Below are positions 20,211-21,442 of a stretch of DNA of 64,000 nt, piece after piece. The notes beneath the pieces are model-generated. The model was not told the DNA's origin. It worked only from the letters and a program-made list of their open reading frames with translations, and did not search any database. The DNA lies in contig NC_090352.1 in NCBI RefSeq assembly GCF_035084215.1, positions 23,126,001 through 23,190,000 on the forward strand, read 5' to 3'. Position 1 is the stretch's first letter, and each line of letters begins with the position of its first letter. The position numbers and the translations under genes were made by a program. Origin of the DNA: Heptranchias perlo. Taxonomy: Eukaryota.

Positions 20211-21308
20211 GGCATCTGAAAACAGAGCAGAGCATTAAGATCAACCATGAGCTTAATTGGATTGAGTGACATTGGATCAGAAAATTACCACGAAAATAAA
20301 TATATGAATGTGTGAATGTAAATTCTAAAATAAGTGAGGTTTGTCCATGTATAATAATCTAGAGACTGTTTTGAAGTCACGTTAAGCGCACTGACAAATT
20401 TAAATACTGCATTGTTTAATAACAACTACCCTGCCTCAAAACAGCTATTAAATAGTTTCAAATGGAAGATTTTTCCTTTGGTCATAATTAATTTAAAAAT
20501 CCTAAAGCTGACTAATATATTGTGGTATTTAGCTGTCTGATTTGAATACTACCTCAGGCACCAAACTCACAGGGGAACAAAAATGAACCGTGGGTTTAGC
20601 ATGAATTATGTAGCTCCACTGCACCTTTCATCCTATTATTTGATAATCAAAAGTGTGGAAGACAGCTGTGCTGCTATAATTAAGTCTGAATAAGTTTCTA
20701 TGTAAATTATATTTCATGAGATTGCTTAAACCAGTCATCAAAATGAGTAATTATTTGAGAGAAATATATACCATCATTTTTATTTTTTACAGATACCTCT
20801 CCCTTAATAGACCTAAGCAAAACTTCCGTCTTTAAAAAGAACTAGTTGATATTAGCAATATTCCTATATGTGCGCACTCCATCTTAAATTATTGCAATAT
20901 AGAACAGAGTTGATGCAAGGACTTTGTGTTGCCAAGTTTAAGTTACGTTCGGATAATTGCTTAAAAATATATTTCACATGTGGAACTTTCCAGCTTCAGT
21001 ACCTGAAATAGGAAAAGAAGTAATGCTACAAATATATTTCTATACTGGTGACTCTTCCTATGGCCTTGCTCATGATTAGTCGGAGGAAATGTTGGGGTAA
21101 ATTTCCAACTTGCCCTCTGGGTGTAAAAGTGGTGATGCGGGTCGGCCGTCCGTTAGAGAAACTGCTGGATTTTCATTTCCATTGATCACCATCAGAGCAG
21201 TATGAAAAACATGGGCCATGGACAGGGTCATATTACAAAAAATAATGAGGAAACAAAGTACCCTAATTGTACAGTCAGAATGTACCCTAATTGTACAGTC
21301 ACACTCAC

Positions 21309-21345
21309 TCACCTGACGAAGGGGATAATCTCCGAAAGCTTGTGA
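21309..21345 (+). ncRNA. Minimal hammerhead ribozyme motif
   Basis: TCAC-CTGACGA-A-GGGGA-TAA-TCTCC-GAAA-GC-TT-GTGA. Confidence 0.7.
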
Positions 21346-21397
21346 TTTTAAAATAAAATTGTTGGACTATAACCTGGTGTTGTAAGATTCCTTACAT
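21309..21397 (+). mobile_element. Short Penelope-like terminal insertion, family A variant
   Basis: Similar to 41944-42030; flanked by repeated ttgtacagtca(gaa). Confidence 0.75.
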
Positions 21398-21442
21398 TTG
21401 TACAGTCAGAAGACATCACGCCAGTGCTCACCATACATGGAG

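Follow-up and report, generated by a model that had tools for sequence, protein, structure and literature searches.

Short hammerhead ribozyme insertions in the genome of Heptranchias perlo: probable run-off cDNAs of a Penelope-like element leader

Four small hammerhead ribozymes lie within a 64-kb stretch of the Heptranchias perlo genome (contig NC_090352.1, positions 23,126,001 to 23,190,000, hereafter the window), each of them in an insertion of 100-215 bp. The question raised by this locus is how such insertions are made: whether they are an independent ribozyme-carrying mini-element mobilised by a Penelope-like element (PLE) and similar to a retrozyme, as the original prediction proposed, or products of the PLE itself.

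Both strands were scanned for CTGANGA followed by a pairing stem II of at least 4 bp and GAAA. Exactly four matches were returned, at 958-982 (-), 21313-21337 (+), 21536-21560 (-) and 41949-41973 (+), as had been claimed for minimal type I hammerheads, against 0.34 on average, and never more than 2, in 200 approximate dinucleotide shuffles of the window at the 4-bp threshold. The complete hammerheads are named c1, c2, c3 and c4, and a fifth, incomplete arm is named c5. Their parts lie at the following positions.

950-986, minus strand: c1 hammerhead.
21309-21345, plus strand: c2 minimal type I hammerhead, stem I at 21309-12/21342-45.
21313-19 and 21334-37, plus strand: c2 hammerhead core.
21321-25/21329-33, plus strand: c2 stem II, GGGGA/TCTCC.
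21528-21564, minus strand: c3 hammerhead.
41945-41981, plus strand: c4 hammerhead.

The core CUGANGA...GAAA, type I topology and an NUH triplet are present in 4/4 copies, and the core varies at N7 alone (G or C), as originally described. Stem I is TCAC/GTGA in all four complete copies, with a length of 4-5 bp. Stem II consists of 5 bp with a 3-nt loop in each copy and reads GGAGG/CCTCC in c1 and c3, GGGGG/CCTCC in c4 and GGGGA/TCTCC in c2. An unpaired A between positions 9 and 10.1 precedes a G10.1-C11.1 pair in 4/4 copies, and the 3′ side of the core reads A15.1-G-C-U16.1-U17 in each. Helix III is absent, its place being taken by the palindromic A-G-C-U at 15.2-16.2 (4/4). The triplet CUU is within the NUH rule as set out in PMC2238771 and PMC3884650, and the cut is predicted in c2 between 21341 and 21342. 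RNAfold recovered stems I and II in all four isolated motifs, with weak z-scores (-0.45 to -1.78). Rfam, searched with E values as high as 1, gave no hammerhead family, probably owing to the missing helix III.

Min-HHRs occur in the pseudo-LTRs (pLTRs) of metazoan PLEs (Cervera and De la Pena 2014, PMC4209133). On every sequence feature tested, the present motifs are minimal hammerheads of this class. They share with the min-HHRs described in PMC4209133 the core, the extra base between 9 and 10.1, the G10.1-C11.1 pair, the palindromic 15.2-16.2 and a helix I of 4-5 bp, and also the occurrence of families with compensatory changes, of mostly single dispersed motifs and of some opposite-strand pairs. 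Schistosoma min-HHRs are likewise mostly single motifs, probably of truncated PLEs, with some opposite-strand pairs; in contrast, helix II has 7-8 bp in the Schistosoma families and 5 bp here, and the triplet CUU lengthens the palindrome of the present copies, so that A14 could pair with U17 (PMC4209133). PMC6155905, PMC2238771 and PMC3884650 were also drawn on for the comparison.

The palindrome AAGCTT had been taken as stem III. Palindrome and CUU are present, but helix III of an active dimer would be the 4-bp AGCU, and pairing of the 6-bp AAGCUU would consume A14 and U17. In a nearest-neighbour model that leaves tertiary contacts out, the active dimer fold of c1 reaches -17.3 kcal/mol, versus -19.9 for the A14-U17-paired form and -26.1 for the best fold. 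In the parent RNA, the ribozyme is predicted to need either dimerisation or the aid of a protein for cleavage. U17 cleaves poorly, and Lunse and co-workers are said to have found in 2017 that PLE-associated small hammerheads cleave as dimers; no CUU cleavage rate was found in the literature searched. Activity of the ribozymes in their present loci is unlikely, because complete copies on the same strand lie ~20 kb apart, because c3 sits in a perfect duplex and because the active dimer is not the fold favoured by the nearest-neighbour model. A dimer between the c2 core and the c5 site on the plus strand was considered and rejected, since c5 would pair with c3.

The window contains four insertions with six arms, whose parts are as follows.

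860-992, minus strand: c1 insertion with full tail; possible 7-bp duplication at 854-860/1008-1014.
993-1005, plus strand: short inverted stem II stub at the 5′ junction of c1, a 10-nt exact match.
21258-21301: left flank of c2, with a 14-bp target duplication at 21267-21280 and then a second, partial target copy at 21282-21301.
21302-21401, plus strand: c2 insertion, of the second subfamily, ending at the proximal 3′ end with no tail.
21398-21411: right copy of the c2 target duplication (14 bp), which has 4 bases, those at its start, in common with the 3′ end of the element.
21430-21442: left 13-bp target duplication of c3+c5.
21443-21572, minus strand: c3, the long fold-back arm with hammerhead and most of the tail.
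21573-21656, plus strand: c5, the inverted arm, without tail and without C3, U4 and the 5′ strand of stem I; 84 bp identical to c3.
21656-21668: right 13-bp target duplication of c3+c5.
41943-42071, plus strand: c4 insertion with full tail; possible 5-bp duplication at 41938-42/42072-76, weak.

The target duplications are clear for c2 (14 bp) and for c3+c5 (13 bp), and weak for c1 (7 bp) and c4 (5 bp). The copy originally placed at 21527 does carry the motif, but it is one arm of a fold-back: c3 and c5 are a single insertion of head-to-head arms, identical at 84/84 bp including private variants and separated by a 14-nt spacer, and c5 begins inside the hammerhead core. The inverted arm is thus full in c3/c5; it is a 10-nt stub in c1, where the match quality is equalled by 12 of 2875 background 22-nt windows, and c2 and c4 have none. 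The resulting 84-bp perfect hairpin (21475-21656) would give long dsRNA if transcribed, a possible siRNA or editing substrate; three Rfam microRNA-precursor matches to it were rejected, all being below the gathering score.

Two sites account for the 3′ ends. They are separated by 34 nt, the length of a tail that is present in c1, in c4 and mostly in c3, and missing from c2 and c5. The near site is used by c2 and, four bases earlier, by c5, and the far site by c1, c4 and, five bases earlier, c3. On the plus strand, the stretch at 42025-42046, ahead of the tail, has TTAC and a short pyrimidine run and ends in CCCCAG; it could be a splice acceptor, and PLE leaders can contain introns.

At the other end, once duplications and inverted arms are removed, the four complete copies start 6, 7, 8 and 2 nt before stem I, and none of the six arms extends beyond these starts. 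The only clean 5′ junction, that of c4, begins with G, a weak hint of a cap-derived base. Memoryless truncation would give such clustering with P ~5e-4, 7e-6 or 4e-9 for a mean extra length of 50, 150 or 1000 nt, respectively, a post hoc calculation on n=4, the sampled insertions having been chosen for their hammerhead core. The predicted cut is spanned by all four complete copies, and no arm (0/6) begins or ends at it. The c2 and c3+c5 insertions, which belong to different subfamilies, lie tail to tail ~40 bp apart (21258-21668). The rough chance of such neighbours at the density of the window is 0.008, and a local insertion preference is possible.

These insertions resemble the PLE insertion unit, which consists of an inverted 5′-truncated pLTR, a 30-40-bp tail and a target site duplication (TSD) (PMC3846280 and PMC8557442). 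As in units of EN+ PLEs, one finds here a head-to-head inverted arm, a 34-nt tail on one arm and a TSD of 13-14 bp; unlike the units described there, the present ones measure 100-215 bp, have no ORF and have 5′ ends clustered at the ribozyme. A PLE origin is very probable, and the TSD, tail and inverted arm point to mobilisation by PLE machinery, as had been proposed.

Stops interrupt all three sense frames through the element, which codes for no protein, and none of the four insertions in the window (0/4) is attached to an ORF with reverse transcriptase (RT) and GIY-YIG domains. A tblastn search with seven PLE-related proteins gave matches at 8290-9430 and 12838-13029 alone, both belonging to another family, which bears out the original observation that no ORF accompanies any copy. 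Min-HHRs are known from pLTRs of ORF-bearing PLEs; in the window we find a pLTR-type anatomy with no ORF joined to it, and we class the hammerhead insertions as PLE-derived pieces and not as autonomous elements.

The other family is represented by three copies.

8261-9430, minus strand: 5′-truncated, frameshifted and internally deleted copy, ending in its own tail.
12746-13450: old copy with an inverted terminal arm, the C-terminal end of the ORF and, near 13363-13446, what is left of a hammerhead and terminal repeat.
41300-41432, plus strand: solo terminal piece with decayed core, intact stem II and AACGTT palindrome.

Its RT region is 33-62% identical to seven homologues, two of which have a GIY-YIG domain, the best match being a ray protein (58%). 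Pfam gave no match in this RT piece, and its PLE identity follows from the homologues with RT and GIY-YIG domains. The solo piece has the geometry of the family studied here: it starts at the ribozyme and runs for ~130 nt. The window also contains a nearly whole LINE, presumably CR1-like, at 35570-39153 (+); its ORF1 resembles an esterase (GDSL), and a second frame, of 789 aa, covers endonuclease and RT.

The original prediction stressed compensatory changes in stem II across the four copies. In the ribozyme 36/36 cells pair; one pair of c2 has changed on both sides, from G-C to A-U, and a single wobble occurs besides. The swap and the wobble are real, but with one two-sided and one one-sided change among nine pairs the score is equalled in 128/500 shuffles, and four copies therefore cannot carry a covariation claim. 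The stem II swap in c2 is one event between two subfamilies, and alone it is not significant. The alignment revealed a second two-sided change near the 3′ end, with c2 again the odd one out.

21381-21396, plus strand: 6-bp hairpin just before the proximal 3′ end, carrying the second compensatory change.

Its closing pair is G-C in c2 and A-U in c1, c3 and c4. For ribozyme and 3′ hairpin together, 60/60 cells pair and the score is equalled in 35/500 shuffles. Among 11 differences between c2 and c4 in 93 nt, four fall in stems and make up the two compensatory pairs, and no pair is broken; random placement of the differences gives P ~5e-4, a figure that ignores clustering and for which the hairpin was chosen after c2 had been seen. 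Neither this second pair nor the inverted arms of c5 and c1 were mentioned in the original prediction. Copies c1, c3 and c4 show only 4 mismatches in ~120 nt among them, in keeping with its description of young ORF-less copies.

The letters of c2 recur elsewhere in the genome. Two DNA runs of one sample have the c2-type hairpin in loose ends of 24 and 26 contigs, and a further run of that sample, presumed to be RNA, has the c2-type stem II in 9 contigs. Two subfamilies therefore exist, and either swap goes back to a single event in a source lineage. Selection in two parent lineages, rather than in these copies, is likely what the compensatory pairs reflect. Compensatory-looking changes at hairpin ends could also come from quasi-palindrome repair at the DNA level, a reading that agrees with the position of both swaps, at loop-closing pairs beside altered loop bases; the retained G-U pair speaks, weakly, for RNA.

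The extent of the family was assessed by aligning to c4 the contigs of one sample, from two of its four DNA runs and two of three runs guessed to be RNA. In each DNA run ~15,000 contigs align to c4. Depth falls to flank level outside about 41925-42086, and summed depth over c4 amounts to 2.5-5.6 million, versus 9-11 in the flank, which is not a copy number. The family is likely very abundant, with tens of thousands of copies or more. The two runs guessed to be RNA gave 4,296 and 4,045 contigs on c4; these contigs reveal neither ends nor strand, may be DNA and are not evidence of expression. Pattern scans for relatives gave no match in GTDB genomes and none in viral contigs, and a single metagenome match was rejected as chance, being an unrelated, bacterial-coding-like sequence without ribozyme.

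Among the best 24 of 492 rows, the 3′ loose ends that sit at 42070-42072 extend far (median 255) and disagree with each other (0.37), as expected if a fixed end enters unique DNA. In the same rows the consensus behind 42071 begins with GACT in three of the four runs, giving ATG-ACT, at an agreement of only 0.37-0.41; this suggests, though weakly, that the element has an ATG at its distal end. The 5′ loose ends of the DNA runs, again in the best 24 of 492 rows, are short (median 19-53) and unrelated (0.40-0.44), and they may reflect shared upstream sequence, hence longer copies. Four rows show a head-to-tail joint. One of these, from 42035 to 41943 in c4 coordinates with 29 other letters between the units, recurs in both DNA runs, so that a few tandem copies are present elsewhere in the genome. 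No strand-changing joints were listed in the contig alignment to c4, though the window has fold-backs.

The reading that we favour, and consider probable, is that the 100-130-bp insertions are dead-end cDNAs of the uncleaved 5′ leader (pLTR) of an abundant PLE, made by run-off. It draws on PAc (Poseidon) of Anolis carolinensis, whose protein acts on both strands of the target, nicking and extending them (Frangieh et al. 2024, PMC11167929). According to the same study, PAc RT starts internally at two sites, which accounts for the tail; uncleaved RNA is the dominant substrate, the ribozyme cutting only with protein; and RNA was needed up to ORF position 172, past the start region at 111-118. The present family shares with PAc a pair of 3′ ends spaced by the length of a tail, a 3′ region rich in AC and an uncleaved template. 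The distance from ribozyme core to far end is also similar, ~120 nt: 123 nt here, whereas in PAc, RT starts 111-118 nt downstream of the point where stem II begins. Unlike PAc, in which the ORF starts at stem II, the present element has stops in all three frames, and the copied part would therefore be an untranslated leader.

Under the run-off model, transcription of the parent element would begin a short way upstream of stem I. Its GIY-YIG endonuclease would nick the target and, by analogy with PAc, RT would start inside the RNA at one of two sites, ~90 or 125 nt from the RNA 5′ end, which would correspond to the two 3′ ends with their spacing of 34 nt; the nearer of these lies directly behind the covarying hairpin. 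RT would then pass the uncut ribozyme and run off the 5′ end of the RNA, and copies would therefore end 2-8 nt before stem I or short of that point. Where both nicked strands primed, the two cDNAs would join head to head, giving c3+c5 and the c1 stub. Repair leaves the target duplication seen in the window. If the PAc requirement for downstream RNA, which was established in vitro on a different element, applied here, the resulting stubs would lack what is needed for another round. Since each complete copy has sequence on both sides of the predicted cut, the templates did not arise by cleavage, and the copies were likely made from uncleaved RNA and not from retrozyme monomers. A point against the run-off model is the second PLE family in the window, the truncated copies of which are long and bear an ORF.

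Next in order come ordinary 5′-truncated PLE insertions, which would derive from the downstream pLTR of long transcripts, with RT stalling or second-strand joining near the structured ribozyme. We judge this unlikely. PLE insertions are indeed mostly 5′-truncated (PMC8557442; bioRxiv 10.64898/2026.07.22.740005), c5 and the c1 stub stop within the ribozyme, and the short 5′ loose ends (best 24 of 492 rows) look as if the repeat continued upstream in some copies; however, 4/4 complete copies stop 8 nt or less upstream of stem I, where RT would already have unwound the motif, whose structure would then offer no obvious stop.

Still less probable is an independent, non-autonomous, SINE-like mini-element of ~125 nt, solo copies of which would use the pLTR promoter for transcription and depend on PLE RT, acting in trans, to be copied again. 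The nearly fixed position of both ends, the great abundance of the family and the two subfamilies with linked compensatory pairs would suit such an element, and in a rotifer, pLTRs alone were enough to mobilise host DNA in trans (PMC3846280). In its fullest form this would be a self-propagating, PLE-dependent replicon of 125 nt made up of the hammerhead and an RT-start hairpin, with both covarying helices under selection, which we regard as equally doubtful. The copies end at putative RT start sites and would not include the RNA further downstream on which PAc depended; inverted arms built on the spot, together with the existence of two 3′ ends, resemble fresh integration products; and no flanks are shared among the four insertions. 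The original choice between a mini-element and a random truncation series keeps its first term as a slight chance, but it misses a third reading, a fixed-length by-product of the parent element's own RNA, which fits better than either.

A non-LTR retrozyme, with tandem or circular RNA units freed by dimeric self-cleavage at CUU and then reinserted, is highly improbable: retrozymes are similarly non-coding, carry a type I hammerhead, derive from pLTRs and are present in one chondrichthyan genome (PMC7229834 and bioRxiv 10.64898/2026.07.22.740005), AGCU allows dimerisation in principle and the contigs hold the few head-to-tail joints mentioned above, but the window shows no tandem insertion (0/4), one ribozyme per sense strand and no end set by cleavage, the active dimer of c1 loses to both other folds in a model without tertiary contacts, and c3 and c5 would be locked in their 84-bp duplex. 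Two defining marks of a retrozyme, a tandem repeat of at least two ribozyme-bearing units and unit ends set by cleavage, are thus missing from the window, and the label retrozyme-like is not supported.

Minimal hammerheads have already been described in PLE termini across animals, and as such the find is an ordinary one. We found no description of this family in cartilaginous fish in the literature searched, which covered few subscription journals, and supplements of the 2026 preprint may list chondrichthyan families. Of some interest are the clustering of the 5′ ends and the hairpin that covaries where RT likely starts. How PLEs integrate and what their ribozyme does are open questions (PMC8557442, PMC11167929). 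If the run-off reading is true, these stubs map the in vivo start of the RNA, two RT start sites and two-strand priming, and they show that copying does not require cleavage. The hairpin that covaries beside the near 3′ site is a concrete candidate for the signal at which RT starts.
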